Source: a virus
Lineage: Duplodnaviria > Heunggongvirae > Uroviricota > Caudoviricetes
IMG/VR virus record: IMGVR_UViG_3300005663_003096
Strand: one strand, 5' to 3'
DNA length: 64,000 nucleotides
The notes under the pieces are model-generated. The model saw nothing but the letters and a program-made list of their open reading frames with translations, had not been told where the DNA came from and did not search any database. The translations under genes and the position numbers were made by a program. Positions within the stretch are counted from its first letter, which is position 1; each line of letters begins with the position of its first letter. Positions 1-64,000 of this stretch are shown one piece after another.

Positions 1-1446
1 CATCCCGCGCCACCCGCTGCATCGTTTCAGACATGGAGGTCCCGAAGACCCCTTTGCCGAACTTCTGCAACTCCTTCAGGAAACGATGCTCCTTGCGACT
101 GGTTGGCAGTCTATCGTGAGGAAGCTTCAGGAGGGTCTTGATCTCTTTCATTGGATCGCGCGGGCTCGCGCCGGCACGCTGCCAAGTCAGACCTTGCAGG
201 CGCTTCACGTCCTTCACATCACAGCGCAGGAATTTTGCGATCACCGGTGCAAGGGGCACACGTGCGTCGATCGCATCCCGAAGCGCGGGCTCTTCATGCA
301 TGGATCTTGCGAGGATCGGATAGGCTTTTACGGCCTGCTGGCGGGCGATGGCTGCCTCGGTGTTGACCGTGTCTGGATCGAGCAGAGTGCTGCCATGTGT
401 CCCACAGAGCCACTGTGCATGACCCAGTTGGGTAAGACCGGTCCCACGCATGATGCGCAAGACTTCTGGATCCATAGCGTCTGCGATGGCCCAGCGCATC
501 AGATTGAGGCGGCTGTCGGCTTTGTTTTTCAGCATATGTTTGACTTGGTGCCGAAGCTTGTCATCAATCACGCGTCGGCTCGTTCTGTCGACGCCCATCA
601 TACTGTAAAGACCGCCGGATTTAAGGAATTCCAGCCCTTCAAGCGCCATAGCACGGGCGCTGTTCGAATGGCGGTTCAGCTCGATATCGCCCCGGCCGTG
701 GGAGATTTGCCAGTCTGGATGCCCCTTGTAAATTACCTCGAGCGCCTCGGCGACAGATTTGAGAGGGGCGACTTCCTGATTAACGGACTTCAACATCTTG
801 TTGATGAGCGCCCCGTCATCGTCTACCGCGATGACCGACAGCGCCTTGCTGTGGAGCGATAGGTTGTCTCCAGCGATGATCAAACGGCGGAAGCCGGGAA
901 ACTGATCTTTGTAGGAAACAAAGATACGCGCATCCTCAATGTACTCGGCGTATCCTTTTTCCCAATCCTCCATGAGCTCCTTGAGCTTTGGATTGTCCAG
1001 GTCGAGGCTGTGCTTCTGAGCCAAGGTTCTGAAGAGTGTATACTCCTCAGGGCGCTTCGCCTCAGGCTGCATTTTCAAGAACGGGTTGAGATCCTTCATC
1101 ATCGGGTCGTTCGCGATGAAATCGGAGACAGGGATCCGCTTGAAGCGCACGCCCTTCTCGCTTTCGACGATCTCGGGCTCTGGCTCAGCCTGAGGTGCCC
1201 TGCGGAATAGCGAAGCGGCCATGGATGGTACTGCTGCAGCAGACGGTACCGTTTCCTGCAGCGCGGTCTCATCTGCCTCAGGCATCCATGGGGCGCCCTC
1301 TTCTTCGGCAGGTTCAACTTCGTTCGAGCCCCCATAGCGATAAAACTCGAAGAGCTCGACCAATGTCTCACCGGCCGGATGCGCTTCTTCAACCTCTTTG
1401 ATAGGCGCCTTCGACGGGAAGAAGGACGATAGGAATCTGAACATCT
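1..1446 (-). CDS. hypothetical protein, partial (start codon at 1446; 3' end runs off the window start)
   Basis: Open reading frame on the minus strand from the ATG at 1446 to position 1 with protein-like composition (…KGYAEYIEDARIFVSYKDQFPGF…). It is absent from the ORF track only because it has no stop inside the window. The + strand ORF 86..862 is its antisense shadow. Confidence 0.5.
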
Positions 1447-1521
1447 TGATCTCGCATATTTGTTAGACGCCAGTGTCGTCGGGTCATGCGAAAAGACGAA
1501 AGCATTCCTATCGTCAGAGGA

Positions 1522-2376
1522 TCAGGCGGACCGTTTCATATGCTTGTACTTCCGATCAAAGCTCGCGAGCTTGGGCAGGTCCATGGCGGCCGGCGAGGCG
1601 CGCATCTTGCCATGATCCAGGAACAGGCTGACAGCGCGATCACGATCGATGATCTTCATCGATTTATCGTCCTGACGTGGGCCCCACCCCACCCGCAGGA
1701 GATAGTTCAACATGCCATCGGGATCGACGCCGTCATCGCGGTAGCCCAGAAGACTTGCCGCGGCGTCTCGCTTGGACATCTTTTTGCCGTCCATCGTGAT
1801 CAAGCCGACATGGGCGAAGTCCGGCATCGCGGCTCCGAGGGCCGTGTAGAGCCCAGCATGGCGGAAGGTATTGGTCAGATGATCCATGCCGCGGATAACG
1901 AGGTTCACACCAAGATCGATGTCATCGACCACGGAGGCGAAATGATAGACCGGCATGCCATCGGCTTTGATTAGCACCTGATCATGCGCCAGATCATGCG
2001 CCTTGGCGCTGGGCAGCTGGTCGCCGGAAATCAGATCATGCCAAGGGGCTGCCGCCCCACCCTTCATCAGTACAGCACCATTATCGGCACGGACCGCCAG
2101 CCCTGCATCTAGAAGCTTTGCAGCCGCGGCGTCATAGATGTCGCGCCGGTGCGACTGGCGGTAGACGGCATCGGGTGCAAGGCCCAGCCAATCGAGACAG
2201 TCGTGGATCACGTCGATCGAGGCGTGGTTGTTGCGCGCAAGATCCGTGTCATCGATGCGCAAGATGAAGCGACCGCCACTGGCGCGCGCTGCGAGCCAGT
2301 TGAAATATGCGGTGCGGGCGGTGCCGATGTGAAAGTCGCCGGTTGGAGATGGGGCGACGCGGGTCGTATAGGTCAT
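1522..2376 (-). CDS. gluQ: glutamyl-tRNA synthetase catalytic-domain paralog (GluQRS/YadB-like; no anticodon-binding domain), ~285 aa
   Basis: Protein from MTYTTRVAPSPTGDFHIGTARTAYFNWLAARASGGRFILRIDDTDLARN with HIGH-type motif (HIGT) and KMSKR. It aligns along the GluRS catalytic core (…VVDDIDLGVNLVIRGMDHLTNT…GKKMSKR…LLGYRDDG…NYLLRVGW) but stops after ~285 aa, as in GluQ-RS. Start set at the ATG at 2376, which has an AAGGA Shine-Dalgarno upstream; the track ORF start at 2538 is upstream read-through. Confidence 0.65.
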   Translation of the reverse strand: MTYTTRVAPSPTGDFHIGTARTAYFNWLAARASGGRFILRIDDTDLARNNHASIDVIHDCLDWLGLAPDAVYRQSHRRDIYDAAAAKLLDAGLAVRADNGAVLMKGGAAAPWHDLISGDQLPSAKAHDLAHDQVLIKADGMPVYHFASVVDDIDLGVNLVIRGMDHLTNTFRHAGLYTALGAAMPDFAHVGLITMDGKKMSKRDAAASLLGYRDDGVDPDGMLNYLLRVGWGPRQDDKSMKIIDRDRAVSLFLDHGKMRASPAAMDLPKLASFDRKYKHMKRSA

Positions 2377-2389
2377 TGCGAAAATCCTT

Positions 2390-2756: not shown

Positions 2757-2832
2757 TGGCATCCGCAGCGAGGATCGAACTCGCGTCTTCGGGGTGAGGT
2801 CCCGGTATTCTGACCAATTGAACTATGCGGAC
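2757..2832 (-). tRNA. tRNA-like gene, probably tRNA-Glu(CUC), atypical anticodon arm (C33, 27:43 mismatch); possible pseudo-tRNA
   Basis: Reverse complement GTCCGCATAGTTCAATTGGTCAGAATACCGGGACCTCACCCCGAAGACGCGAGTTCGATCCTCGCTGCGGATGCCA folds as a cloverleaf. It has a 7-bp acceptor stem (G1:U72), D-arm GTTC/GAAT, T-arm GCGAG-TTCGATC-CTCGC, discriminator G and an encoded CCA. The anticodon loop ACCTCAC carries C33. Confidence 0.45.
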
Positions 2833-2845
2833 GTGGTTGTGATTT

Positions 2846-2921
2846 TGGCATCTCCTACGAGTCTCGAACTCGTTTCTGCTGCTTGAAAGGCGGCTGTTCT
2901 AACCGGGTGAACTAAGGAGAC
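2846..2921 (-). tRNA. tRNA-Glu(UUC)-like gene, one C·A mismatch in the anticodon stem
   Basis: Reverse complement GTCTCCTTAGTTCACCCGGTTAGAACAGCCGCCTTTCAAGCAGCAGAAACGAGTTCGAGACTCGTAGGAGATGCCA folds as a cloverleaf. It has a 7-bp acceptor stem, D-arm GTTC/GAAC, a canonical anticodon loop CTTTCAA (U33, anticodon TTC, A37), a perfect T-arm ACGAG/CTCGT, discriminator G and an encoded CCA. It lies 13 nt from tRNA-like gene 1. Confidence 0.55.
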
Positions 2922-2931
2922 GTAAGGGCAT

Positions 2932-2955: not shown

Positions 2956-3223
2956 TGCATGGGTATCGGGCGCGAAACTGAACTCTGGCGTCAGCGCGTC
3001 TCTCGATACCCGTATTGTTCTTCCTGAAAGCGGAACATGATTTTCTTCCTTTGATTTGGATATCTTTTTCGCACAACTCAAAGGGTCCGTCAAGAATAAT
3101 TTTCGCAAGCATCGCAGGGCCACTTATCGAGGCATATATGTGGAAAACCCCAGATCATCGTTTTTCTAAAAAGGGTCACAGACTACCCTGACGGCAACCA
3201 TACCTGATAAAAGAGACCTCCTC

Positions 3224-3753: not shown

Positions 3754-4347
3754 TCAGCTCGGCGCATTCACCATGCGGTTCAGCTGCATCGAGAGTGCCT
3801 GTGCGGAGGTGGTGACCTCCTTTTCAATGCTCAGGGTGATCTTGCCTAGCGATGCATCCATGAGCGCGATGCCGGCGTTCAAACTGCTTTCGATTTCGGC
3901 GCGTGTGCCATCGCTCATCTGATCTGCGTGCTGCGCCGCTGTCTGCATAAGCTTCAAAACTGTGCGCTCCACATGGTCGATGCAGACCAGCTGGCTTGAG
4001 GGGATCTCTTCGCGGGCGGCATCAATCTGGCGGCAGCGATCAACGAAAGGATAAGCGGCCTCTTCCAAGCCAAGACTGCGGCCAATGACCCGCACGGCCG
4101 CAAGATCGTCTCGACGGTCTTTAAGGGCGTAATATTTGGCTTCCGTGGCGAGGTAGCGCGCCTTCATCTCTTTGCGCAGGCGTCTTTGGTTTAGAAACTT
4201 GTAGATTGCGGCGCCGATCACCGCAGCACCGGTCGGGATGATCACGGCGCCAAGAAGGAGCAGAGTCTCTGGCGAAAACGCAGTAACTGCAAAAAGAACG
4301 GCAAAGAAGCTGACAATGAAAACGACTAAAGCTTCAGTAAGACACAT
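3754..4347 (-). CDS. hypothetical membrane protein (two N-terminal TM helices plus a cytoplasmic domain)
   Basis: ORF of 197 aa. N-terminal VVFIVSFFAVLFAVTAF…LLLLGAVIIPTGAAVIGAAIY gives two TM helices. Its start overlaps the stop of the upstream gene (ATGA at 4347). Confidence 0.5.
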   Translation of the reverse strand: MCLTEALVVFIVSFFAVLFAVTAFSPETLLLLGAVIIPTGAAVIGAAIYKFLNQRRLRKEMKARYLATEAKYYALKDRRDDLAAVRVIGRSLGLEEAAYPFVDRCRQIDAAREEIPSSQLVCIDHVERTVLKLMQTAAQHADQMSDGTRAEIESSLNAGIALMDASLGKITLSIEKEVTTSAQALSMQLNRMVNAPS

Positions 4348-4769
4348 TATTCGCCCTCCGATTGCTTGCTGTCTTCCTGAGAGCGTTGATCTGCGATGGC
4401 GAATTCAGTCGGCGAGCCTGCCAATCCTTCAACCTCAAAGATCACCTTTTCACCTTCTTCGTAACAATACCCCACATCATCGCTGACGCGGCTGAAGGCA
4501 AAGCTACCGCCCCGCTCCATGCATGTCGCCTCAATATCAAGCAGGGCTGTCTCGCGCTCTGCAAAGCGCTCTTTCTGTGCATCGAGCTGGATGAAGTAAA
4601 AGGAGGCTACGAAAACGATAAGAGAGGCTGCCTGTAACACAAACCCAACCGGTCCACGAATGAGTTGATACTCGATTGCATCCCCTCTTTTCTTCCAACG
4701 CCGCGTGCGTTCCGCATCCTTTTCCCGCATCTGCGATGTGCCTTCGGCATACTCATGTTGTCTCGGCAT
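4347..4769 (-). CDS. hypothetical membrane protein
   Basis: ORF of 140 aa with an internal TM segment (VLQAASLIVFVASFYFIQL). It is translationally coupled to 3754..4347. The TTTTTCGCA motif abuts its ATG. Confidence 0.45.
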   Translation of the reverse strand: MPRQHEYAEGTSQMREKDAERTRRWKKRGDAIEYQLIRGPVGFVLQAASLIVFVASFYFIQLDAQKERFAERETALLDIEATCMERGGSFAFSRVSDDVGYCYEEGEKVIFEVEGLAGSPTEFAIADQRSQEDSKQSEGE

Positions 4770-4948
4770 TGCGAAAAACCCCTCTGTGTTAAAGTATATA
4801 TATTCGCACTTCTTGTTGGGGCAACCTGTCGCTGTAGGAGTAATTCTGCCCAGCGAGGCTTAAAACTTCTTTGAACCTCTGGATTATCGCAAGCCATCCC
4901 TATACTGGCGGCACCAATCGAGATGAGAAGAACGAGTCCACAGGCAGT

Positions 4949-5486: not shown

Positions 5487-6764
5487 TCAAGGACAGGGCT
5501 CCTCCACTCCCAGGGCTTTTCGCAGTGTGATCTCAACATTCTCACGGCAGGGCCCTTCTGATTTGAGCTTGAGATCATGCCCGCAAAGACCTCCGATAAC
5601 CTCGGCGAGGTTCTCAGTGTCAATCTCTGAAACAAAGGGCCCCTCTCCCATATCCATCACCGAGATCTCGATCTTATCGCCCAGCTGATCGAGGCAGGTG
5701 ACCCCCAGGCCATGATCAATGCCTACGCCCTGCCCTGTGCTGCGCGCGAGATCGGCCGAGATGATGCGGTCCAGCTCTCGGAGGTCCAGAGGTGCATAAC
5801 GGATGGCGTCCTGCCATTCGTTTGGCCTGTTGGTGCGGTCGATCACCTCAGTACCGGGCAAGGGCGTCGTTCCGCGGTCGAGCGGGAACGGCCCTGCCCC
5901 GTGTCGCGTTGCATAGGCCCGGGTCATATAGATGATCTCGAGATCGGTGATCTCGGCGTCTCGAGCGATGTCCACCATATTCTTGGCGCCAGTATGCGAC
6001 CGCGTCACGTGAGGGAATTCTCCGAGGTCCATATCGAGTTGCAACCCTTGGGCGCCCTCAAAGACAATGGCATCGCGATCGCCCAGGGCGCTATCCGACA
6101 TGATCGAGACATACTGCGTAAAGTGGCGCAGATCGTCATAAAATCGCTCAACGACTTCTGGGGCGTTGCCGAGAACAGGCTTTAAATGGTCTGGGATGCT
6201 ATCGAGACCAAGGGCTGCCAGGCGCTGCGGCACCCAAGAACTCGAAATCTCGTCGAGAAATCGTGCGAGGTCAGGCCGCCAAAGGTCATTCATGCAAAGC
6301 ATTGGCCCCTGCTCCTGCCGTTCCAAGGTCTCACCAAAGCCGAGACCACAAGATCCGTGCTTATCACCGCCGCGGAAAATCTCAGCTGCCTGATTGATGG
6401 CCATGTCCCAGGGTGTTGTCACCGCTGTGCGCGGATCGGCCGTGATCTGAATATCCTTTACGCCTTTGCGCGCGAGATCCTCGATCTCAGCAAAGAAGAC
6501 AATCGGATGAGATACAAAGAAGCGGGACAGATGGGTGGCGGCGCCTCGGAAGGATCCGGACCCGATGTGATGGAAGACATGGTGGCGGCCGTCAGCCATG
6601 GTGACGCCGTGGCCCGCCTGTGCGCCGCCATTGGAACGCACGACAGTGACCTGGCGCCCCTGCCCCTCAAGCTGCGCCGTGAGCGCATCTGTGGCCAGCC
6701 CCTTGCCTTCATCACCCCAGCCGGCGCCGATGATCCCACAGGCTTTGCGGATGTCATTTCCCAT
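5487..6764 (-). CDS. adenylosuccinate synthetase (PurA) family protein, divergent paralog
   Basis: Matches PurA signatures: GAGWGDEGKG (P-loop-like GDEGKGK), GGAQAGHGV, FEGAQGLQLDMDLGEFPHVTRSHT, RAYATRHGAGPFP and GVGIDHGLGV. It is 425 aa, clearly divergent from housekeeping PurA. Confidence 0.7.
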   Translation of the reverse strand: MGNDIRKACGIIGAGWGDEGKGLATDALTAQLEGQGRQVTVVRSNGGAQAGHGVTMADGRHHVFHHIGSGSFRGAATHLSRFFVSHPIVFFAEIEDLARKGVKDIQITADPRTAVTTPWDMAINQAAEIFRGGDKHGSCGLGFGETLERQEQGPMLCMNDLWRPDLARFLDEISSSWVPQRLAALGLDSIPDHLKPVLGNAPEVVERFYDDLRHFTQYVSIMSDSALGDRDAIVFEGAQGLQLDMDLGEFPHVTRSHTGAKNMVDIARDAEITDLEIIYMTRAYATRHGAGPFPLDRGTTPLPGTEVIDRTNRPNEWQDAIRYAPLDLRELDRIISADLARSTGQGVGIDHGLGVTCLDQLGDKIEISVMDMGEGPFVSEIDTENLAEVIGGLCGHDLKLKSEGPCRENVEITLRKALGVEEPCP

Positions 6765-8845: not shown

Positions 8846-9769
8846 TCACAGCCGCTGGACGCCGCGACCCTGACCGGTCTTGGCCGGCACGCCCTTCAAG
8901 GCATTGGCCACGGTCAGTGCGGTCGAACCCGACCAGCTGGCGGCCACATCGGAGGCCATAGCGCCCTCGGTCACCTGGATCAGCGATACGACAGTCTCAA
9001 CCAGTGCGTTGACGTCCTCAAGCTGAATGGTGCGCTCAGGAAGGATCTGGCGCCAGGACGTGAGAACCTGATCGCGGCTCTGGCCCCAGTTGCAGTAGCC
9101 CTCGTTGACGAGAGCGATGTGGAAGACTTCCCAATCGCGCTGAACCATCCGGATGATGTCGGCCGCCGAGAGATCCGCTTCGACAGTGATGCCCAGAACC
9201 CGCTCGATCTCTGCTTTGGTCATGCCATCGTGGATCGGTTCATCGCCGATGGTGAAGAGATAGCCTTTGCGGCCGCGTTTCTCGATCGCATCGGCGCGGA
9301 CCTTGGTTGCGGCGAAAAGATGGGCCGATGAGTAGGATTCCCCGCCGTTGCCGCCCCCTGCCCCTTCAAGCCAGAGCTTGCGGGCCTGTTCAGCGACGCG
9401 AATATCGGCTTCGAACTGGGTTACCTGCAATGGCGCCCGGTCGGTTTTCGCATCCCCCACGCCCATGATCATGATATGCGGATCAGTGACCGGCTTGCGG
9501 TCATAGATCTGGGTCGCCAGGGTGTTGAGCCCGTCGCGCATCAGCTTCTCGGCAATCATACCCATGGAGCCGGTCACATCTGAGGCGAGGATGATCGGGG
9601 TCGACAGCGGGTTGTCCGCGGAATCCCGGCTTTCACGGAATTCAATTTTCGACGGGTCGAACTCGTCCTTCATGTTGCGCGATGTGAAAATCTGGCTTTG
9701 CGATTTACCCGCGGTGTTCTGTGCGGTGTAGCCGGCCCATGCCGAGCTGTCCCAGCGTCCATTTCCCAT
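8846..9769 (-). CDS. von Willebrand factor A (vWA) domain protein
   Basis: MIDAS-type motif ILASDVTGSMG (DxSxS) followed by a TxxxD-like segment. Start at the ATG at 9769, preceded by AAAGGAGATCTATC-ATG; the track ORF start at 9805 is upstream. Confidence 0.65.
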   Translation of the reverse strand: MGNGRWDSSAWAGYTAQNTAGKSQSQIFTSRNMKDEFDPSKIEFRESRDSADNPLSTPIILASDVTGSMGMIAEKLMRDGLNTLATQIYDRKPVTDPHIMIMGVGDAKTDRAPLQVTQFEADIRVAEQARKLWLEGAGGGNGGESYSSAHLFAATKVRADAIEKRGRKGYLFTIGDEPIHDGMTKAEIERVLGITVEADLSAADIIRMVQRDWEVFHIALVNEGYCNWGQSRDQVLTSWRQILPERTIQLEDVNALVETVVSLIQVTEGAMASDVAASWSGSTALTVANALKGVPAKTGQGRGVQRL

Positions 9770-9848: not shown

Positions 9849-10865
9849 TTAGAGCGCGTAGACCCCCGCCCCATTTCCAGTGTATTTTGCAAAACGCCGG
9901 ACACCCCAGGCATCGGTCAGCGCCTTTTGCCATTTGCTGTAATCCGCGATCCCGTCTTTGCCGGGCGGCAGCATCAGCCAGTTGCGGATCGGCTCGGGCA
10001 GGCCCAGGCCGGAAAGCTGGCTCAAGGAGGCGGCCCCCATCGCCTCACATGTGGTGCGGCGGATCAACTCGAGATCAAGCGACGGATCCGCGGTCATGTC
10101 TTTAACGGCCATCTGGGGCGCGATCTGCAGGCTGCGGTTTGGCAACAACACCGGCCGCGTCCCGACATCTGTGGCAAAGCCCCAGCCCGCGACCAGGCGC
10201 ACCGCGTGAGTCTTGGGATCCACCATGACCGTATCGGGACCAATGGCGCCATGAACTTTACCAGCCCAGGTAAGCCAAGCAGCGATGTTCATCAGGCCCG
10301 AACAAAGCCAGGCGGCGTGTACAGGTTCCATTGGCCCGTCGCCTGACAGCAGATCGGCCAGTAGCACCTCCCCGTTCTGACGGCTGTGGGTGATCAATGT
10401 CTTGCCATCCACCAGATCGACGCGCGACTTGTTGCGTGGGAGGAACTTGCGCATCTGATCCTCCATCTTGGTATCGGCAAACTTGAAGCCCGAGAGATTG
10501 CGCAGCTCAGCTTCCGCGATATCCAAAAGATCGGCATCAAAAATCTGTGCAACACTGATGGGCCCTACCAGCAAAGTGCCGATGTCGGTCTCATGCTTTG
10601 ACAGGGTGCGCATGGCCTGTCGTCGGCCGTCGGCTTTGGTGAAGATGTATCGGGTCACCAGCATGGAGGGTTCGCCGCGGGCCGCATCGCGGAGCGTCAC
10701 CAGTTTGGCAAAAACATCGGCAGCCTTCGGATCCTGGCAATGATCCGGGTGCCAGCGGGCCGCGAGGGTGCGAAAAGACTTTTTGTCCGCCTTCTCATCC
10801 CCAGAGAAAATCTTGGACGCATCCCGCAATCCCATGTTTAGAATCTGCTCTGCATTGAGGTCCAT
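9849..10865 (-). CDS. J-domain (DnaJ-like, HPD motif) protein fused to an atypical kinase-like domain
   Basis: N-terminus FRTLAARWHPDHCQDPKAADVFAKL is a J domain with HPD. The C-terminal part carries HGAIGPDTVMVD … VRLVAGWGFA, resembling the catalytic loop and DFG-like region of RIO/APH-type kinases, with the catalytic Asp apparently replaced. Start at 10865 (TAAAGGAGATCAAA-ATG). Confidence 0.55.
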   Translation of the reverse strand: MDLNAEQILNMGLRDASKIFSGDEKADKKSFRTLAARWHPDHCQDPKAADVFAKLVTLRDAARGEPSMLVTRYIFTKADGRRQAMRTLSKHETDIGTLLVGPISVAQIFDADLLDIAEAELRNLSGFKFADTKMEDQMRKFLPRNKSRVDLVDGKTLITHSRQNGEVLLADLLSGDGPMEPVHAAWLCSGLMNIAAWLTWAGKVHGAIGPDTVMVDPKTHAVRLVAGWGFATDVGTRPVLLPNRSLQIAPQMAVKDMTADPSLDLELIRRTTCEAMGAASLSQLSGLGLPEPIRNWLMLPPGKDGIADYSKWQKALTDAWGVRRFAKYTGNGAGVYAL

Positions 10866-10919: not shown

Positions 10920-10998
10920 CAAATTATTATCCTATCTCTTGTATAACCCTGCGAAAATACTGATGCCCTGAACCAGAAAAGGTGTATCGAGAGGAGAT

Positions 10999-13041: not shown

Positions 13042-13067
13042 TTAACATTCTTACTTAAAGGATGAAA

Positions 13068-13115
13068 GAGAAAGACCCCTATAACAGATAGTTAGGGGCC
13101 TTTCTTTCCTAATTT
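13068..13115. terminator. hairpin-rich terminator region between convergent genes (CCCCTA…TAGGGG stem with flanking GAAAGAGAAAG / CTTTCTTTC)
   Basis: Inverted repeats read from the sequence between the stop at 13041 (+) and the stop at 13144 (-). Confidence 0.4.
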
Positions 13116-13143: not shown

Positions 13144-13776
13144 TTACGCAGGCTCTTCAGGTGCCTCGTAGTCGACATGTCCTGGTACAACACTAGGATC
13201 GATCACAGCTTTCCAGATGACGTCATCGATAACTTCTGATGCGCGCTCGGCAAGCATATACTCATCGCCGATCAGAGGTGCTGCGTGGAAGTGGAAGAAG
13301 AGGTCCCGCTGGGCATCATCCCAGGTATCAACCGGACCCCACTCATCTGCATCTTTCGAATATGCAGAGAAAGGAATGAACCCGGGTCGCTCGGTAAGTT
13401 CTGCTTCAACCAGCTCGCGCCAGGCCTGTATGCCGGCATCGTCCATGGCGTTGAAAGCCGCCTCAAGGTCGCGCAGAGGGAAAGTGACGATGATCTGGTC
13501 GTTACCCATGGAATAATCCCGCGGTGAGATGATCTTCTCGAATGCCATGTCGAGGCCAGATTCCTCTACTGCAGCCTTGGTATAGGCCTGCACATAGGAG
13601 AGATGAACTTCTGCCCAACGAACATTCGTCGTGCAGATCATATCAGGTTTATCATCTGCCTCATCGTCGTTGATCTGTTCCAGTGCGATATCCAGCATCT
13701 GGTCGTGGACGGTGTTGTAGAGGCCCGAAAAGGGCAATTTGACGGATACACGGCCATCGGGTGTTTTCTGTGACAT
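13144..13776 (-). CDS. hypothetical acidic protein
   Basis: ORF of 210 aa with a Shine-Dalgarno (CCAAGGAGATTGACCC-ATG). Confidence 0.45.
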   Translation of the reverse strand: MSQKTPDGRVSVKLPFSGLYNTVHDQMLDIALEQINDDEADDKPDMICTTNVRWAEVHLSYVQAYTKAAVEESGLDMAFEKIISPRDYSMGNDQIIVTFPLRDLEAAFNAMDDAGIQAWRELVEAELTERPGFIPFSAYSKDADEWGPVDTWDDAQRDLFFHFHAAPLIGDEYMLAERASEVIDDVIWKAVIDPSVVPGHVDYEAPEEPA

Positions 13777-13834
13777 GGGTCAATCTCCTTGGTTGACCCC
13801 AATATCACCGCAGGTTGCGAAAAGGCGTAATGCC

Positions 13835-13957: not shown

Positions 13958-14052
13958 GTTTAATATCTCCTTTTTCGCAATATTACCTATTGCGATATTT
14001 TTCGCAACGCACTAGGTAGGCTGAACCGAACAGACATAGAGGGACGAGAGAG

Positions 14053-51899: not shown

Positions 51900-52369
51900 A
51901 GATGCAATCCCTCTACATCAAACGCCCCCTCGCCCCGTCCGATAACGATATGATCGTCGACATGATGGCGCGTTTTGACTTTGAGTGTGAGGTCGATCTG
52001 CACCTGACGCTGATCTATTCAAAGCGCGAGGTCGACTGGAGCTTGCCTGTCTTCCAAGCGATGGAAGCCCCCCTGGAGATCGTGCCACAGGATCTTGCCT
52101 TTGACCGGTTCGGCCCTCACCTGGTGCTGACCATGCGTTGCCCTGAGATCGAGGCGCGGCACCGCGCGCTGGTCGCGGCCGGCGCGCATTTCGCCTTCCC
52201 GGAGTTCAATGCGCATATCTCGCTGGGGCTCGACCCTGAGGGAGCTGTGCAGGACTATCCTGATCTCTCGGGGATTACCGGGCTCCAGTTTGAAGGCGAG
52301 GTCCGCGGGCTTGCCAATAAAGCAGAGTCCAAGGTGAAGCCGCCCGAAGATGAGCCTGAAATGACCTGA
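51896..52369 (+). CDS. 2H phosphoesterase superfamily protein (LigT/2'-5' RNA ligase/CPDase-like)
   Basis: Two H-x-T/S-x motifs at the expected spacing: HLTLIYS and HISLGLD. ~157 aa. Confidence 0.55.
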   Translation: MKMQSLYIKRPLAPSDNDMIVDMMARFDFECEVDLHLTLIYSKREVDWSLPVFQAMEAPLEIVPQDLAFDRFGPHLVLTMRCPEIEARHRALVAAGAHFAFPEFNAHISLGLDPEGAVQDYPDLSGITGLQFEGEVRGLANKAESKVKPPEDEPEMT

Positions 52370-54792: not shown

Positions 54793-55668
54793 ATGACATT
54801 AGAGTGGAATAGGCGCGCATCGGAGATCGATGCCTCGGTAAACTTCATTGCGAAAACGAAAGACGGTGGCGCACTTGAGGCCCGTTTCGTTCAGCGCAGG
54901 TCCGAGTATTTTATCGCCTATCTCTCCTCCCAAACCGGCTGCAACCAATCCTGCAGGTTCTGCCACCTCACCCAGCTCCGGGAAGTATCAATGGGCCAGG
55001 CCCGTATCGCAGACTATCACGCGCAGTTTGCACAGGTCCTTGACCATTACGACAGCCTCAAAGCGCCGGTTGAGCGGATGAACGTCAATATGATGGCCCG
55101 CGGTGAGCCCTTGCTGAACCCGAACTTTTGCAATGAGTTCGACCGGTTCATCGCGCCGATTCGCGCGGCCGCAGAGCAACGCGGCATCAACTACCGCGTC
55201 AATGTCTCATCGATCTTCCCGGTGGGGGCGCGTGAGGTGGATCTGATTAAATCCTTTGCCGGCCATCCGGTGACATTCTACTGGTCGCTCTACTCCCTGC
55301 GGCAGAGCTTCCGCAGGCGCTGGTTGCCGAAGGCAGATGCCCCGGCCACCACCCTGCCCCGTCTGCGCGCCTGGCAAGAGGCCACCGGACGCGACGTGGT
55401 CATTCACCACGCGCTGATCTCGGGCGAGAACGATCGTCTTTGCGATCATATCGCTTTGCGGAACTTCCTCAGGAATTCTTCCTTGAAGACGCGATTAAAT
55501 CTCGTTCGCTACAACAGCTTCGGGCCGCGGACCGGGCGCGAAGCGAGTGATGCCGCCTATGCGCAGGCACTGGAGGTCCTGGGAGAAGATATGCCCCTCT
55601 CAGGCTCGAAGATCGTCCCGCGCGTCGGCCGCGACGTTGCAGCCTCTTGTGGGATGTTTCTGACCTAA
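54793..55668 (+). CDS. radical SAM protein, RlmN/Cfr-like (compact)
   Basis: CNQSCRFC (CxxxCxxC). MMARGEPLLN resembles the RlmN GMGEPL motif. C-terminal …RVGRDVAASCGMF ends with the conserved Cys. TGCGAAAAAG motif upstream of this start, within the longer track ORF. Confidence 0.5.
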   Translation: MTLEWNRRASEIDASVNFIAKTKDGGALEARFVQRRSEYFIAYLSSQTGCNQSCRFCHLTQLREVSMGQARIADYHAQFAQVLDHYDSLKAPVERMNVNMMARGEPLLNPNFCNEFDRFIAPIRAAAEQRGINYRVNVSSIFPVGAREVDLIKSFAGHPVTFYWSLYSLRQSFRRRWLPKADAPATTLPRLRAWQEATGRDVVIHHALISGENDRLCDHIALRNFLRNSSLKTRLNLVRYNSFGPRTGREASDAAYAQALEVLGEDMPLSGSKIVPRVGRDVAASCGMFLT

Positions 55669-56199
55669 GTTTGGGTCATTACAGGCCTCAAGACCAAGGA
55701 TTCCGGCAATCTGGTTCCCGAAGTCACGAACTGCCAATGCGCTTGTGATGCCATGGAGCTTCACATAGCGGCGCCCCCATTGATCTTCGTCCATATCAGA
55801 TGCATCGATCGCGATGACGGAAGCAACGGCTGAGATCAGCCTTTCCGTATCCGGGTAGACTTTGGCGCTCATTTGTTGGGCTGCGCCAGACCGTTTCGAT
55901 CTATCCAAGCTCGATGCCCTATCCGCCTTAGCAAAGATTTCCAGTTTCGGGCGCGGTTTACGGATCAGTTGATGGGTATCACTCTCAGACGCCGTTACCG
56001 TCATAACCGAAAAGCTGTCGCTCCCCGCCATGCGAGTGATGCATAAAAGGGCATAACCTCCAGCTCGGAAGTAGAACTGCTCATCGCTGCCTCTCATCTT
56101 GGTTGATGTGGACATATGCGCCACCAGAGGCCTCCTGTTGTATCGCAAGAACTGCGAAAATTCATTCACGTCAGTATCTGACACATCGCAAATGGCCAC
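55600..56199 (-). CDS. hypothetical protein (start uncertain)
   Basis: Track ORF of 199 aa. An internal ATG (MSTSTKMRG) is a possible start. Confidence 0.35.
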   Translation of the reverse strand: MAICDVSDTDVNEFSQFLRYNRRPLVAHMSTSTKMRGSDEQFYFRAGGYALLCITRMAGSDSFSVMTVTASESDTHQLIRKPRPKLEIFAKADRASSLDRSKRSGAAQQMSAKVYPDTERLISAVASVIAIDASDMDEDQWGRRYVKLHGITSALAVRDFGNQIAGILGLEACNDPNLGQKHPTRGCNVAADARDDLRA

Positions 56200-56294
56200 A
56201 AGCCTTAGTAGATTGCCAGCGGGGAATTGCCGGCGGCAAATGAAAAGAGGCAGCCCGAAGGCTGCCTCAAGTTGCGGTAAACCGCGATAGACCG

Positions 56295-58549: not shown

Positions 58550-59326
58550 TCAGTCGCGCTGCTCGCGCCGTGAGCCCGGCGGACGGGTCTGTGCCGTGCG
58601 CAACGTTTTCTTCCGAGTCCGGTTGCCCCGCTGGATAACCTTGCCTTTGGCATCTTTGGTGACGACGCTGGTCGGGATCACGTTGCGGTACCCTTCTTCG
58701 GTCACGATGTAATCGAAACTGGCTTCATCCGATTTGAAAATCCACTTCTTGCTGCCGCGGGCAAAGAAGGAATACTGTTTCCCCTCCAGCGTGAAGCGGT
58801 GAATGTGAAGAGCCGTCGTATTGCCGCCTTTGGACGGGGGGCGGTAGGGCTCATAGAGGTATGCCTTGTAGTCCTCAACCGTCACGCCCTCATGGCGGCG
58901 AACATCCTTGCCAGCCCAGCTGGTGACCGGGATTCCATCGACCACGGTCAGGCTGTCTTCATCGGTCCGGGTGATCTCGGCAATCGCATGCTTCCAGACA
59001 TTGAGCTCGGCCACCATGGCCATAACCTCATCACTGCTGTGATGGGCGCCCTCTGGCAGCCTCTCGCGGATCTGCGCGCGCTCCTCGGGCGTCGTCCAGG
59101 CCAGTGCCACGGCCGCCGGCACATGGGCCCTGTAAAGCCCGTCATCACCGGGAATGATCATATGGGGGAACTTGTCGTAGTCCTCGACGTATTCGCCTGC
59201 CATCCGCATTTTGCCACCACGCGCTACCTCAATGCCGATGTCCTGAGGGTCACGATACTCCCGTTCATCTTTCTTCTTTGCGTCTCGGACGCCGTCAAAT
59301 GTCTGCTGTTGAACGTCTTCCTTCAT
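58550..59326 (-). CDS. hypothetical protein
   Basis: ORF of 258 aa. Confidence 0.4.
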   Translation of the reverse strand: MKEDVQQQTFDGVRDAKKKDEREYRDPQDIGIEVARGGKMRMAGEYVEDYDKFPHMIIPGDDGLYRAHVPAAVALAWTTPEERAQIRERLPEGAHHSSDEVMAMVAELNVWKHAIAEITRTDEDSLTVVDGIPVTSWAGKDVRRHEGVTVEDYKAYLYEPYRPPSKGGNTTALHIHRFTLEGKQYSFFARGSKKWIFKSDEASFDYIVTEEGYRNVIPTSVVTKDAKGKVIQRGNRTRKKTLRTAQTRPPGSRREQRD

Positions 59327-61213: not shown

Positions 61214-61756
61214 TCACCAGATCAGGAATTCGAGACCCAGAAGCAGCACGATGTAGAGGAACATCGGCCAGATGCAGAAAATGGATCGGAACATGTCGAT
61301 GATGTCGTCATTGCCAAGATCAGTACGCACACCGCGTTCCCAGATCATCAGATAGGCTGCCCCGTAGAACATCGCGGCATCGATGATGTCGGGTCGGCGC
61401 AACCGGGTAAGCTGGGCATTCTCGGGCAGGATCTGCTCCCCGCCATATTCGATAAGGGCGGCAAATCCCGCGGCCACTGCCAGCAAGATGATCAGGCTGA
61501 GCGGGTTTGAATCCTTGAACGCATGGCGCACGATCAACAGCGCGCCGAAGAAGCCGGTCACACCAACAAAGCCAGCAGAGATCTGCTCGGGCAGATAGCC
61601 GTCGATCCCGCCGAGAACGGCATAGGCCGCCCCGCCTGCGAAGGTCGCCGCAACCGCAGTCGAGAAAAGCACATTGAGCACGCGGAGCGCCATTGAGGGT
61701 CCGCGGGGTTTCTTTCGGATGGGCTGCTTGCGCATGCCGTCTCTGATCACTGCCAT
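61214..61756 (-). CDS. multi-pass membrane protein
   Basis: Several TM helices (LNVLFSTAVAATFAGGAAYAVLG; FVGVTGFFGALLIV; LIILLAVAAGFAALI; IFCIWPMFLYIVLLLGL). Confidence 0.45.
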   Translation of the reverse strand: MAVIRDGMRKQPIRKKPRGPSMALRVLNVLFSTAVAATFAGGAAYAVLGGIDGYLPEQISAGFVGVTGFFGALLIVRHAFKDSNPLSLIILLAVAAGFAALIEYGGEQILPENAQLTRLRRPDIIDAAMFYGAAYLMIWERGVRTDLGNDDIIDMFRSIFCIWPMFLYIVLLLGLEFLIW

Positions 61757-61789
61757 GGTCTGGCTCCTAGTGGGGTGTCCACGGGTTGT

Positions 61790-62200
61790 ATCTATGAGTG
61801 CGTTTTTCGCATGTCAAAGATTTCGACCTTTTTCGCATTGATCCTAGCACGATCAGTCCTCAGATGCTCTTATTTTGTAACGCTGTGGCCCCTGTTACGG
61901 CACCCTGTTACAAGACAATCCAGCAAAAACAACAACTTAATCAATGTAACGCATTACGCCGCCGAATGTATTGCGTGTGTGCGTGTGTGCGCCTGGGTGT
62001 GCGTGCATGTGTATACTCTTGCAGGGATTCCGTTATATAACTATCTACATCTAAGAAATATATATAAATATCATAGAGATAGAGTGTTACAAAAAGCGTT
62101 ACAAAGCCATTACAGGGGCGTTACAGACCCCTGTTTTTGTAACAAAACGCTTCCAGTGCGCATTTTTCACAAGTCTGACCTATTCTGATCCCAGAGATAT
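61790..62200. repeat. AT-rich non-coding region with iteron-like direct and inverted repeats of GTTACA / CGTTACA, a (TGTGCG)n tract and a CAGGGG…CCCCTG hairpin
   Basis: CCCTGTTAC twice; TGTAACGC three times (inverted); GCGTTACA two to three times; TGCGTGTGTGCGTGTGTGCGCC…TGTGCGTGCATGTGTAT; AAATATATATAAATA. Two TTTTTCGCAT motifs 26 nt apart sit at its left edge. Confidence 0.55.
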
Positions 62201-62211
62201 GGAGATGTGAC

Positions 62212-62706
62212 ATGAGCGATATTGATCTACACACGCAGCGTTTCATTGGATGGGTTCGGAGCAATATCGAGGCCATGGGGCGCGAAGCGGCGGCCGGCGG
62301 TCTGGACCTCTCGACCATCTGGGCGTTTCGGCGCGTGGTGACCGAAGCCTCCGAGAATGTCAGCGCCTATTTGCGCGAGATGGCCCCTGCCCTGCACCTC
62401 GCCTTCGACGATGCCGGTGGCACCGCATCCTATATCGTGACCCCTGGGGTGAACATCCGGATCGGCGATGAAGTTCAGAAGATCACCTGGCTCACCAAAG
62501 ACGATCTGGAGATCCCCGAAATCCGGCGCGGTCTCGGTCGCCCGCTTGCCACGCTCCTCGATTGTTCCTTTGAGATGTCTCGTTTGGTTCAGGACGCCGG
62601 ACAGAAAGGGGTCACCTTCATATGCGAGCTCGAAGACGACGACATCCACATGCTTGCTGCGCCCTATGATGCGAAGCCTCAGGCCGAGGAGCTGATGTCG
62701 CTTTAG
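62212..62706 (+). CDS. hypothetical protein
   Basis: ORF of 164 aa following the repeat region. Confidence 0.4.
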   Translation: MSDIDLHTQRFIGWVRSNIEAMGREAAAGGLDLSTIWAFRRVVTEASENVSAYLREMAPALHLAFDDAGGTASYIVTPGVNIRIGDEVQKITWLTKDDLEIPEIRRGLGRPLATLLDCSFEMSRLVQDAGQKGVTFICELEDDDIHMLAAPYDAKPQAEELMSL

Positions 62707-62875
62707 ATGTGAAAATCTTTTGTGATATTACTGCTATTGTTTTCCCGACACCCCCGGGTTTTGCGTCAAAAGGCAGATCAAAGCCCTTGGATCCACAAGC
62801 CAAAGCTACCTGATCCGTATTTATGCGAAAACAGAAGGTAGCATCAGGAGATATTAACCTGAACTGGACTACCCT

Positions 62876-64000
62876 ATGAAACATGTCAGACCTATCGGGG
62901 AGCTTTTGCGCAAGCGGGCGATCTCTCTCATTGAAGGCGTGCTTTATCTTGTGGTCGCATTGGCGATCATCGTTGGTGGCATCGTCTTCTTTCAACAAGC
63001 CAACTTCAACCGGCAGGTCAACTCCGTCGCTGGCATGATGACCAGCGTGTCATCGTACCTGCTCGCGCAAACGAAGGAGGTGTCCAACACCTCGGCAGAC
63101 AGTGAATTTGTGACAGGCGACGCGACGACCTATGCGATCCGGTCCGGCGCCATTCAGTCTGACATGGTCGATCGCGCTCAGGGCGCGCCGGACACAGAGG
63201 TCATCAGGATGCCATGGGGTGGCATTGTCACCCTTCAGGAAGCAGCTGCGCGCCATAACGGCCGTCGCATGCCGGTAATCGCCATGCGCATGAATGACCT
63301 TCCGACGGGCGCCTGTATGCGTCTGGGCCATAAGAACGCAAATGGCACTTCCATGATTGGTGGTAGGGTCTTTGCGCTTGGTGTCGAGGAAAACAACATC
63401 CACGACGACAACCTGGATTGGGTATCGGGTGATCTGCGCTATATCGCCCGTGCCGGCGAAGACACGGACATGGCTGCTCTGGCTGAGGCCTGCAAAGGCG
63501 GTAAGCGCGACCTGATCGCCTTCTATGATGTATCAGGCGTCCCAGACGATCTTCCAGCAGTCTATGACGTCAGCGACCCTGATGGCGACGGTGAAAGCCC
63601 CAATAACAACCCCGACTCTGATAGCAACACCGGCGGTGACGAAGGTGGATCTGATGGTGGTGGAGACGGTTCTGGTGACGGCAGCGGTGGGGATGGAGAC
63701 AGCTCTGGCGGTGGCACAGGTGGCGATGGGGACGCATTCTGCCCGCCGTCAAACTGGTCTTGGAACGCAGCCCGCAGCGAATACACTGTCCCGGGCATCC
63801 AACTGTTCCATAAGGACAGCCGTCATGGCAATACGGTCGTGTCTCTTAACGATCCTGGGACCACGACAAAATTACGCGTTCCTGCAGTCTCGACATCAGA
63901 TCTGTTCGAGTTTTCGCGTAGCCGCGGCAGTAGGACCTACTGGAATTTCGTGCGCCACATCGAGCGTGGTGATTTGGTGCCTCCCGGCGATAACTGCTGA
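62876..64000 (+). CDS. pilin-like (TadE/pseudopilin-type N-terminal hydrophobic segment) protein with a Gly/Asp-rich low-complexity region; partial, 3' end beyond the window
   Basis: N-terminus RAISLIEGVLYLVVALAIIVGGIVFF resembles a prepilin/TadE-type helix. GGDEGGSDGGGDGSGDGSGGDGDSSGGGTGGDGD repeats. No stop codon before position 64000. Confidence 0.4.
   Translation: MKHVRPIGELLRKRAISLIEGVLYLVVALAIIVGGIVFFQQANFNRQVNSVAGMMTSVSSYLLAQTKEVSNTSADSEFVTGDATTYAIRSGAIQSDMVDRAQGAPDTEVIRMPWGGIVTLQEAAARHNGRRMPVIAMRMNDLPTGACMRLGHKNANGTSMIGGRVFALGVEENNIHDDNLDWVSGDLRYIARAGEDTDMAALAEACKGGKRDLIAFYDVSGVPDDLPAVYDVSDPDGDGESPNNNPDSDSNTGGDEGGSDGGGDGSGDGSGGDGDSSGGGTGGDGDAFCPPSNWSWNAARSEYTVPGIQLFHKDSRHGNTVVSLNDPGTTTKLRVPAVSTSDLFEFSRSRGSRTYWNFVRHIERGDLVPPGDNC

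Follow-up and report, generated by a model that had tools for sequence, protein, structure and literature searches.

The motif and its genomic setting

The window, that is the whole stretch of 64,000 nt that was analysed, comes from a huge phage-like element, in line with the huge phages to which the sequence-only reading had compared it. The element is found on contigs of 426-656 kb and carries aminoacyl-tRNA synthetases, tRNAs and Acb1. Its relatives are present in Rhodobacterales isolates, and their source names cover several Rhodobacterales genera and one Parvibaculum MAG (Leisingera, Epibacterium, Cereibacter, Parvibaculum). Because the relatives occur in isolate assemblies, a plasmid-prophage lifestyle is suspected.

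Among all 8-mers of the window, TGCGAAAA is the most frequent, with 41 exact copies on both strands (Table 1) against 2.84 expected (maximum of 8 in 100 shuffles), a density of ~0.6 per kb. The non-coding share, 16% of the window, holds 31 of these copies against 0.65 expected, and 32 if the GluRS-like gene begins at ATG 2376, likely its true start. The word is all-or-none: one-mismatch variants in non-coding DNA were at chance (12 vs 13.3 expected). A T precedes it in 23/41 copies and an A follows in 17/41, so that the extended form T-TGCGAAAA-A described earlier stands as a preference and not as a fixed form. When the window copies were compared, no repeated flanks were found around them. 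Both orientations and the pairing noted earlier were recovered; most pairs are direct repeats at 26-34 nt (3066/3100, 13972/13999, 16347/16379 and 61804/61830). All 33 positions first listed are true copies, mostly 0-3 nt off (21946 is actually 21937), and the 8 copies absent from that list (5517, 9445, 10769, 14172, 23860, 34782, 40203 and 54849) are all intragenic. The chance expectation, first given as about one, is closer to 3.

Table 1. Exact TGCGAAAA copies in the window. Forward and reverse give the motif orientation relative to the gene it precedes; L-numbers are relatives' loci.
Copy	Strand	Orientation	Context	Relatives
1487-1494	+	reverse	tandem gap, 42 nt upstream of ATG of 2-1444(-)	
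2377-2384	+	reverse	adjoins ATG 2376 (AAGGATTTTCGCAATG)	
3066-3073	-	forward	144 nt upstream of tRNA-Glu(UUC) at 2921; direct pair with 3100	
3100-3107	-	forward	distal in direct pair, 34 nt from 3066	
4770-4777	+		divergent gap; adjoins ATG of 4347-4769(-), 93 nt upstream of 4871(+)	
5517-5524	-		within adenylosuccinate-synthetase-like gene, sense	
9445-9452	-		within gene 8846-9769(-), sense	
10769-10776	+		within gene 9849-10865(-), antisense	
10950-10957	+	forward	44 nt upstream of NUDIX/NrtR-like regulator gene at 11002	
13816-13823	+	reverse	39 nt upstream of 13144-13776(-)	exact in L007, L008
13972-13979	-	forward	14 nt upstream of 40-aa ORF 13835-13957(-); about at predicted transcription start	kept in L007, L008
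13999-14006	-	forward	41 nt upstream of the same ORF; read reversed, within spacer of TTGCGA-17-TAGGTA (13990-14018, +) before gene 14053	
14172-14179	+		within gene 14053-14625, codons Ala-Ile-Ala-Lys-Thr, sense	conserved
16347-16354	+	forward	60 nt upstream of tRNA-like RNA; distal in direct pair	
16379-16386	+	forward	28 nt upstream of tRNA-like RNA 5' end (16415)	kept in L007, L008
17276-17283	+	forward	15 nt upstream of conserved TTTACA-16-TATATT promoter-like pair; PTH2 operon	
19828-19835	+		divergent gap; 86 nt from 19922(+), 49 nt from 19778(-); DnaA-box-like TTATCCACA 15 nt downstream	
20457-20464	-	forward	40 nt upstream of 68-aa gene 20210-20416(-); motif-N9-TATGGT	kept in L007
21937-21944	+		divergent gap; 76 nt from 22021(+), 56 nt from 21880(-)	
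23860-23867	+		within HNH-HipA_C gene, sense	
27507-27514	+	forward	72 nt upstream of 27587	exact in L007, TGCGAAAT in L008
28318-28325	-	reverse	tandem gap, 32 nt upstream of 28358(+)	lost in L007
30091-30098	+	reverse	adjoins -35 of promoter-like pair (30062-30090, -) before Trp leader peptide and TrpRS-like gene	kept in L007, L008
31808-31815	+	forward	32-53 nt upstream of gene 31848/31869(+)	kept in L007
34782-34789	-		within gene 34345-35163(-), sense	
35205-35212	-	forward	41 nt upstream of ParB/Srx-fold protein gene 34345-35163(-)	
37922-37929	+	forward	28 nt upstream of Thr-run leader peptide ORF (37958) of class II aaRS; read reversed, 37 nt from 37884(-)	
39531-39538	+	forward	71 nt upstream of Band_7 gene at 39610; motif-N9-TAGGGT	
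40203-40210	+		within Band_7 gene, sense	
40628-40635	-	reverse	tandem gap, 43 nt upstream of 40679(+); TAGGGT 6 nt downstream	
41900-41907	+	forward	164 nt upstream of 42072	kept in L019, L021
45953-45960	+		in first codons of called gene 45162-45965(-), start uncertain	
50067-50074	+		divergent gap; read reversed, 77 nt from 49989(-), TATCTT 15 nt downstream	kept in L018, L019
54762-54769	+	forward	23 nt upstream of radical-SAM gene at 54793	kept in L018, L019, L020
54849-54856	+		within radical-SAM gene, sense	
56153-56160	+		626-nt gap 55669-56294 with uncalled ORF 55600-56199(-)	kept in L018
56865-56872	+		divergent gap; 57 nt from 56807(-), 46-106 nt from N6-methylase-like gene; motif-N9-TATAAA	kept in L018
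59377-59384	-	forward	50 nt upstream of 58550-59326(-)	kept in L018
61804-61811	-	forward	47 nt from ATG 61756; fills upstream spacer half of TTGACA-17-TAGATA (61789-61817, -)	same layout in L019, L024, L027
61830-61837	-	forward	distal in direct pair, 26 nt from 61804	
62824-62831	+	forward	44 nt upstream of 62876(+)	

Copies concentrate at gene 5' ends

In the window, TGCGAAAA is present in 14/19 divergent, 11/45 tandem and 1/18 convergent gaps, and in about half of the tandem gaps of at least 60 nt. The sole convergent gap with a copy contains an uncalled ORF. When 16 loci (354 kb) were pooled, the density per kb was 3.08 for divergent, 1.97 for tandem and 0.23 for convergent gaps (2 matches in 8.5 kb), and 0.13 within genes. 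This 2:1:0 pattern of divergent, tandem and convergent gaps is what a promoter-zone element should give. The proposed link to gene 5' ends was confirmed in this way, and the motif is scarce in genes; its presence in nearly every intergenic region had been overstated. About 60% of the promoter-capable window gaps have an exact copy in the promoter zone. The claim that essentially the whole region is under its control is too strong, because about 40% have none.

These distributions bear on a role outside transcription, whether in DNA uptake or packaging, in replication or priming, as a target of methylation or as a Chi-like word. Uptake sequences have a similar density, and a short exact word found on both strands would fit such a role; an N6-methylase-like gene also lies within the window. 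The near-absence from convergent gaps and genes and the twofold density of divergent over tandem gaps argue against it. A recent repeat is contradicted by the unrepeated flanks and by the orthology of the copies (see below), and a compositional artefact is excluded by the shuffles. We regard this whole group of explanations as highly improbable.

Among the unambiguous copies in tandem gaps, 33 are forward and 16 reverse relative to the following gene. Forward copies cluster at 36-55 nt from the start codon and reversed copies at 28-63 nt. A TA exactly 9 nt past forward copies is in modest excess (12/52 vs about 7% background); a fixed spacing between the motif and -10-like elements was looked for and not found.

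The motif is conserved across a family of related elements

Of 24 alignable orthologous sites, 22 are unchanged where the alignment across them has 70-95% identity; the mean identity of ungapped flanks anchored on the motif is ~60%. Judged from these alignments, the motif is under strong purifying selection, and the window copies are ancient and orthologous, not recently spread. TGCGAAAA ranks first or joint first among non-coding 8-mers in 5/6 relatives so profiled, down to 42% protein identity. In further relatives (52-69% GC), whole-locus counts are well above the composition estimate where the locus is long enough, and L026 contains 8 copies vs 0.17 expected by shuffles. The L012 lineage has TGGGAAAA instead (8 vs 1.07 expected) and one TGCGAAAA only.

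Such sites could have been copied from those of a host transcription factor onto the promoters of the element, the regulator being host-encoded. The spread of the relatives over several Rhodobacterales genera and a Parvibaculum MAG is compatible with this, and a conserved host protein could explain the stability of the word. Moreover, Pfam and PHROGs scans of all window proteins detected no repressor, sigma factor, RNA polymerase subunit, MotA or AsiA, which also suits a host factor. On the other hand, one lineage has switched all its sites to TGGGAAAA. The word was also not enriched in 50 kb from a roseobacter megaplasmid (1 vs 2.2 expected), which counts against a host factor as well, though the genus of this one replicon is not an established host. 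We know of no Rhodobacterales regulator with a TGCGAAAA site, and a literature text search for this word returned unrelated papers only. Taken together, we consider a host factor quite unlikely.

Placement of the motif on sigma70-like promoters

Sigma70-like promoters score higher in gaps with the motif than in those without (p about 0.015). In several motif promoters, the -35 and -10 hexamers are consensus-like and 16-17 nt apart; in many, the -35 hexamer is weak. Where orthologous promoters have a conserved -35/-10 pair of their own, the motif lies beside the -35, in the spacer or over the -10, and both this position (from -43 to -10/start) and its orientation differ between lineages. In the window and in L007 and L008, the reversed motif at the Trp-leader promoter adjoins the -35 of TTGCCT-17-TATGGT, and in L012 the forward variant lies within the spacer of TTGACG-16-TATAGA. 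Relative to the ATG of the Thr leader, the motif is forward at 28 nt in the window, reversed at 37 nt in L012, forward at 23 nt (in the spacer) in L014 and reversed at 4 nt (over the -10/start) in L015. Other consensus promoters keep it in the spacer: TTGACA-(motif+N9)-TAGATA is conserved as far as a 44%-identity relative, and TTGCGA/TTGCCA-17-TAGGTA is built likewise. At some promoters, second copies lie near the predicted start (13972).

The motif could be a self-contained promoter for an element-encoded sigma factor or RNA polymerase, of the T4 late (TATAAATA), T7 or mimivirus (AAAATTGA) type. The T4 late promoter and the mimivirus early motif are directional core promoter elements for the viral transcription machinery. 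Like them, TGCGAAAA is an exact 8-mer at a large share of upstream regions of a giant or large virus; its all-or-none character, its density, the clustering of forward copies before start codons and the lineage-specific variant would all be in keeping with this. Unlike them, it is non-directional, reversed copies clustering too, and it is adjoined by conserved host-type -35/-10 pairs. Distances to proxies of RNA 5' ends also vary (28 nt for the tRNA-like RNA, 35 or 17 nt by lineage for the Trp leader, 28, 37, 23 or 4 nt for the Thr leader), and neither a polymerase nor a sigma factor gene was found in the window. The stand-alone phage promoter is not supported, in view of the reversed copies, the variable spacing and the host-type pairs alongside; we judge it very improbable.

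A global activator, replacing or assisting -35 recognition as in the sigma appropriation by T4 MotA/AsiA, would switch on a temporal class of genes. The T4 MotA box is a roughly 9-bp asymmetric and highly conserved word near -30, recognised by a phage protein at promoters that keep the sigma70 -10. TGCGAAAA resembles it as a short, asymmetric and near-invariant word at promoters with a sigma70 -10, and relative to the best predicted promoter, many forward copies lie at about -34 to -22. The TA excess and the weak -35 hexamers also speak for an activator. However, the MotA box takes the place of the -35 at a fixed position and in a fixed orientation, whereas a third of the unambiguous copies here are reversed, their position on orthologous promoters moves and good -35 hexamers often coexist with them. 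The second copies over the start and the lack of a MotA or AsiA domain in the window are further points against an activator, which we hold to be unlikely.

A candidate operator of a dedicated regulator

As TGCGAAAA occupies about 60% of the promoter-capable gaps and distant relatives retain it, much of the element is probably controlled by one dedicated DNA-binding regulator. With slightly better than even confidence, we propose that TGCGAAAA is the operator of this regulator, most likely a repressor, and overlaps host-type promoters. One sequence-specific protein would recognise the word, probably as a monomer given the asymmetry of the site, and would probably be encoded by the element itself. 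Its operators would overlap ordinary sigma70-type core promoters read by the host RNA polymerase, anywhere from about -45 to the transcription start and in either orientation, some promoters having a second copy near the start. Since the bound regulator would compete with RNA polymerase, its most likely action would be repression of a large share of the transcription units of the element. The dedicated factor with global operators suggested by the sequence-only reading fits the tracking of 5' ends, the purifying selection and the family-wide sharing; its version with a sigma factor or phage RNA polymerase does not fit the 33:16 orientation and the lack of fixed -10 spacing. The forward bias and the TA excess hint that the geometry is constrained to some degree, a feature not needed by a repressor acting through steric hindrance alone, and 8 bp is short for an operator.

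In the Cluster A mycobacteriophage L5, the monomeric repressor gp71 uses a short asymmetric site of 13 bp at more than 20 places of the genome, its operators and 'stoperators', in promoters and intergenic gaps; site orientation correlates strikingly with the direction of transcription and reversal abolishes repression (PMC9283540). The motif resembles these sites as a short, asymmetric and dispersed word of similar density per kb. It differs from these directional 13-bp sites in its 8-bp length and in having a third of its copies reversed; moreover, copies lie in promoter-bearing gaps and not in short intra-operon gaps, and the genome exceeds that of L5 about tenfold. Among the window proteins, none resembling gp71 was found. 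Cluster A lineages reportedly have differing site consensus sequences matched to their repressors, which the TGGGAAAA lineage parallels.

The C1 repressor of P1 acts alone on asymmetric, non-palindromic operators of 17 bp, fewer than about 20, which are scattered over a large plasmid-prophage genome, overlap many promoters in either orientation and are sometimes doubled. The arrangement proposed here is alike in its single regulator and its dispersed asymmetric sites, some doubled, which overlap separate promoters in both orientations, but the word has 8 bp. No C1 homologue was detected among the window proteins. The KorA and KorB operators of RK2/IncP, about 7-12 sites, are palindromes bound by dimers; these global regulon arrangements were compared as well, and differ in this respect from the asymmetric word. 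Should the element be temperate, a global repressor would be natural.

Enrichment of an 8-base word in non-coding DNA

TGCGAAAA and its complement occur 41 times in the 64-kb window, against a mean of 2.84 and a maximum of 8 in dinucleotide-preserving shuffles. It is the most frequent 8-mer of the whole window, across which GC content is even (0.54-0.59). On a gene map built from codon usage, which agrees with the gene calls on public copies of identical DNA, 31 copies (31-32 depending on the choice of one gene start) lie in non-coding DNA, which makes up 16% of the window, versus 0.65 expected; 10 are genic (1.8 expected). The enrichment noticed in the sequence-only reading, which had the word marking more than 30 intergenic regions across the window, is borne out by these numbers.

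The only preference in the motif flanks is a T before and an A after the word. In the non-coding DNA of the window, variants with one mismatch are no commoner than chance predicts (12 versus 13.3), so that the word is all-or-none. The sole variant with a hint of excess, TGTGAAAA, may be a weaker accepted form of the motif; the related loci L019 and L020 have 5 copies each where about 0.5 would be expected, and the window likewise has 5, of which 3 are non-coding. The next 8-mers confined to the non-coding DNA of the window, AACCTGTC (7 copies) and CCTGTCAT (5 copies), are similar to Pho-box half-sites; examples of the two words are at 11703, 31167, 36539 and 53031. They were discarded as a further signal because they showed no consistent pairing or context. 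The motif string brought up nothing but primers and unrelated sequences in a full-text literature search.

The element and its relatives

Most large ORFs of the window have no Pfam family. The recognisable genes encode adenylosuccinate-synthetase-like, TrpRS-like, class II aaRS and GluRS-like proteins, two tRNA-Glu, PTH2, an HNH-HipA fusion, a GIY-YIG protein, a NUDIX/NrtR-like regulator, Band_7, Acb1 (anti-CBASS), a radical-SAM enzyme and an N6-methylase-like protein. Several window proteins match PHROG families, and in tblastn they also hit jumbo phages of Vibrio and Rhizobium as well as an uncultured phage of 635 kb. The identical sequence is present in several independent assemblies, on contigs of up to 426 kb, and close relatives lie on a 656-kb contig. 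Distant relatives, reached through a conserved 397-aa family protein and lying on contigs of up to 519-564 kb, carry the source names Cereibacter sphaeroides, Leisingera caerulea and Epibacterium sp. Family contigs are JBIFFS010000004.1 (426 kb), Ga0208018_100003 (656 kb), JAHWRP010000004.1 (519 kb) and a Leisingera caerulea contig (564 kb).

No capsid or terminase genes were seen in the window or in the relatives' loci, so that our description of the window as a piece of a huge phage-like element of Rhodobacterales rests on gene content. Searches for relatives were negative in IMG/VR (queried with a neighbouring protein and the tRNA-like sequence described below), in GTDB representative genomes, in INPHARED phages by DNA, and in PLSDB plasmids and INPHARED by protein. 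The moraphages, which infect Bacteroidota, proved unrelated. Across the family, the Acb1 homologue is found near the 397-aa gene, downstream of it in the window and two genes upstream in the related loci L010, L011 and L012. A PurZ-type enzyme would imply 2-aminoadenine DNA; the extent of the adenylosuccinate-synthetase-like match is given with the other features below.

Features of the window and of related loci (L007, L008, L010 and L012)
Locus	Position	Strand	Feature	Details
Window	2-1444		Gene	No Pfam family at E<=0.001
Window	1522-2376	-	Short GluRS/GluQRS-like catalytic-domain protein	Likely start 2376, directly preceded by AAGGA-TTTTCGCA; adjoins the tRNA-Glu genes
Window	2757-2921	-	Two tRNA-Glu genes	Anticodons CUC and UUC
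Window	5487-6764	-	Adenylosuccinate-synthetase-like protein	Positions 2-275 of 416-position Pfam profile only; also in L012 (1-943)
Window	13835-13957	-	Unannotated 40-aa hydrophobic ORF (MNRLGHKFFISLFVTLLCLYLF...)	AGGAG ribosome-binding site; behind double motif; kept in L007 and L008
Window	16415-16488	+	tRNA-like RNA	7-bp acceptor stem, encoded CCA; anticodon stem-loop CCGGU-CUUUAAA-ACCGG; unusual D and T arms; 100% conserved in L007 and L008; missed by ARAGORN and Rfam
Window	19851-19859	+	Perfect DnaA-box-like TTATCCACA	15-16 nt downstream of motif copy 19828; kept in L007 (~7290) and L008 (~7820)
Window	23637-25340	+	HNH endonuclease fused to HipA_C kinase domain	
L007	11579-13287 (region compared with window fusion gene)		Separate HipA_C gene	Preceded by HTH_3 (HipB-like) gene
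L008	12709-14417 (region compared with window fusion gene)		Separate HipA_C gene	Preceded by HTH_3 (HipB-like) gene
Window	28756-29892		TrpRS-like gene	
Window	30005-30055	-	Leader peptide upstream of TrpRS-like gene	Tandem Trp codons (MTQDKPICAINWWLPL)
L012	5137-5184		Trp leader peptide counterpart	MKHASNLTVTWWLAS
Window	37958-38107	+	Leader peptide ORF upstream of class II aaRS	7 consecutive Thr codons (MSIAFITYNMMNMIASTTTTTTTHPGRSVVV)
Window	38083-38107		GC hairpin with T-run	After Thr leader ORF
Window	38152-39402		Class II aaRS	
Window	51896-52369	+	Acb1 homologue (anti-CBASS phosphodiesterase)	
L010	5575-7017		480-aa protein	Only faint RNA_pol_A_CTD/HhH matches; similar in size to window gene 2-1444
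L010 (Leisingera-associated)	12823-13083		Ros/MucR zinc-finger protein	

Conservation of the word and a variant lineage

Among window sites whose surrounding DNA could be aligned to a relative by BLAST, all eight bases are unchanged in 22 of the 24 orthologous pairs, although identity over the local alignments is 70-95% (mostly 70-86%). Ungapped flanks anchored on the motif have a mean identity of about 60%. In five of the six relatives so profiled, down to 42% protein identity, TGCGAAAA ranks first or joint first among non-coding 8-mers; the sixth is a variant lineage, L012. In further relatives with 52-69% GC, whole-locus counts are well above the composition estimate where the locus is long enough, and locus L026 has 8 copies versus 0.17 expected from shuffles.

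L012 (SRR23274491_1827; 51% identity) holds a single TGCGAAAA and eight copies of the one-base variant TGGGAAAA (1.07 expected), six of them within 1.5 kb of non-coding DNA. It alone uses TGGGAAAA, all other relatives using TGCGAAAA. A change of one base at all L012 sites suggests that the recognition factor changed in step with its sites in this lineage. A host-type control, relevant though weak as it covers a single replicon, was 50 kb of a megaplasmid from Ruegeria pomeroyi; the motif was found there once versus 2.2 expected and is thus not enriched.

Placement relative to genes

Sixteen family loci (354 kb, 147 copies; several of the relatives' gene maps are our own) were pooled; because some of them are orthologous, the counts are not fully independent. 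Per kb, divergent gaps had 3.08 copies, tandem gaps 1.97, convergent gaps 0.23 and genes 0.13. The ratio of about 2:1:0 between divergent, tandem and convergent gaps is that expected of something tied to gene 5' ends. Equal frequency in coding DNA, the outcome that had been named as a refutation, is not what these loci show. Its low density in genes and convergent gaps, together with the megaplasmid count, also led us to reject a DNA uptake sequence or Chi-like word.

Almost all window copies lie in gaps of at least 50 nt upstream of a gene. Co-directional gaps of less than 50 nt hold no copies, the sole exception being the one at 2377. This copy, counted as genic, abuts ATG 2376, the probable true start of the GluRS-like gene, and lies 13 nt after the stop of a probably spurious ORF that overlaps the tRNA genes. 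Sigma70-like promoters score higher in motif-bearing than in motif-free gaps, mainly via the -10 element (p ~0.015).

Orientation and spacing of the motif on promoters

Tandem gaps leave no doubt about the target gene; in them, 33 copies face it and 16 face away. Reversed copies are clustered no less tightly than forward ones, 28-63 nt from the next ATG, and those at 13816 and 30091 are conserved in relatives. In both orientations, the distance from the motif to -10-like hexamers varies over about 4-23 nt, and no one value is preferred. The idea of a fixed motif-to-(-10) spacing was dropped, since the TA peak 9 nt after forward copies is modest (12 of 52) and the -10-like peaks of reversed copies, at gaps 6 and 15, are partly inflated by mutual orthologues.

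Transcription starts are predicted throughout. In both Trp leaders and in the Thr leaders of the related loci L014 and L015, the leader ATG comes 6-10 nt after a conserved -10-like hexamer and should therefore closely mark the transcription start. Over all proxies of RNA 5' ends, the tRNA-like RNA and the remaining leader ATGs included, the motif lies 4 to 37 nt away. In the Trp-leader promoter of the window clade, TTTTCGCA, the motif read reversed, abuts TTGCCT-17-TATGGT; in that of L012, TTGACG-16-TATAGA, the variant word is forward and inside the spacer. In Thr-leader promoters the distance from motif to leader ATG differs by lineage (forward 28, reversed 37, forward 23 and reversed 4 nt), the layout with the forward motif at 23 nt being TTGAC-TGCGAAAA-N10-TAGAAG. 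The motif also occupies the spacer of consensus-like promoters elsewhere, in TTGACA-[motif+N9]-TAGATA upstream of 61214-61756, kept out to a relative of 44% identity, and in TTGCGA/TTGCCA-17-TAGGTA upstream of gene 14053. Where copies are paired, the second is often over the predicted start (13972). The -35-like hexamers TTGACA, TTGACG, TTGCCT and TTGCCA stand 16-17 nt from the -10-like hexamers of motif promoters.

As the motif wanders on orthologous promoters, it is unlikely to be a core promoter element; a site that need only lie within the polymerase footprint could wander in this way. The earlier proposal of a sigma factor or phage RNA polymerase is not supported, given the 33:16 orientation, the variable spacing and these shifts. 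Pfam and PHROGs detected no dedicated polymerase or sigma factor within the 64-kb window. TTGCGA was rejected as a -35 hexamer because its spacing to -10-like hexamers is 11-20 nt and many copies are too near the ATG (14-25 nt). A sigma54 reading, with TTGC as -12 element, finds no conserved GG 10 nt upstream, and an archaeal BRE/TATA reading was rejected since the genes use Shine-Dalgarno sequences, one relative has a peptidoglycan-binding gene and the isolate hosts are bacteria.

Leader peptides and a tRNA-like RNA

The Thr leader design (6-7 consecutive Thr codons and a hairpin with T-run) is found in four lineages, the window, L012, L014 and L015. It suggests that a short ThrRS-like gene on a phage-like element is under threonine attenuation; Rfam gave only sub-threshold Thr/Trp/Leu leader matches for it. 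The Trp leader, about 160 nt long and almost invariant among close relatives, has two Trp codons in a conserved leader peptide and suggests Trp attenuation of a TrpRS gene borne by a phage. Its ATG is 6 nt past the -10-like TATGGT, so that the transcript would be near leaderless. T-box leaders were also considered, and Rfam found none before the aaRS genes, which have putative leader-peptide attenuators instead.

The best Rfam match of the tRNA-like RNA is tRNA-Sec (17.9 bits, E 0.5). Its anticodon would be UUA, reading the TAA stop codon. Since 24 of the 81 window genes end in TAA, wholesale recoding in the window was rejected.

Proposed regulator and comparison with known systems

The shifts of the motif within the polymerase footprint on orthologous promoters point to an operator. 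We read the motif as an operator served by a single dedicated DNA-binding protein, probably a monomer, which would regulate host-type promoters, most likely by occlusion (repression). The observations behind this reading are direct, and from them we infer that a protein binds, where it is encoded and that it represses. Of the original claim of one dedicated factor, the recognition factor is retained, in line with the conservation, the family spread and the lineage variant, and the sigma factor or polymerase is dropped.

The nearest analogue of such an operator is found in mycobacteriophage L5, whose monomeric repressor recognises an asymmetric site of 13 bp at more than 20 dispersed operators and "stoperators" (PMC9283540). 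The word described here is likewise asymmetric, non-palindromic, dispersed and mostly intergenic, but it has 8 bp, in a genome an order of magnitude larger. Site orientation is tightly tied to the direction of transcription in L5 and is not so here, where reversed copies are conserved. Moreover, L5 stoperators lie in short intra-operon gaps and stop elongation, whereas the motif lies in promoters. No gp71-like repressor (HTH and stoperator domain) was detected in the 64-kb window by Pfam or PHROGs.

The T4 MotA box has a fixed position (centre ~-30) and orientation relative to the -10, whereas the motif varies in both; MotA-dependent middle promoters are without a functional -35, whereas motif promoters carry -35-like hexamers. 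MotA/AsiA homologues were not found within the 64-kb window. T4 late, T7-type and mimivirus early promoters have a single orientation and a constant distance to the RNA start, unlike the motif. An operator of the KorB/ParB type is a palindrome read by a ParB-family dimer, whereas the motif is asymmetric with flanks that carry no information; the window does encode a ParB/Srx-fold protein, but one with no evident tie to the motif. We also count the RK2 KorA/KorB regulons and the P1 C1 repressor among the close systems. The motif would be a global operator dispersed over a mobile element, here one from a family of very large elements that is uncharacterised.

A more far-reaching version, which we regard as unlikely, is that a single element-encoded protein controls marine Rhodobacterales elements of 0.4-0.65 Mb via the 8-bp word, its specificity having co-evolved with all sites in at least one lineage. 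The word would then stand at an estimated several hundred promoters per genome, and the lineage change would be C to G at position 3, at all sites at once. If this were true and the protein a silencer, no larger viral regulon with a single operator would be known, and megaphages could be switched on or off through it in culturable hosts. Under the same unlikely heading, the reader of the word might instead be a promoter-specificity factor of a new kind, one that tolerates either orientation.

To our knowledge, almost nothing is known of gene regulation in very large phages because few have been cultured. In these elements, transcription across hundreds of kilobases appears to be organised around one word, family-wide and with a natural specificity variant. 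Since relatives are carried by growable isolates (Leisingera caerulea, Epibacterium sp. DP7N7-1 and Cereibacter sphaeroides), the regulator can be fished out by oligonucleotide and tested directly. The motif is also a practical guide to annotating promoters, small genes or RNAs in these elements.
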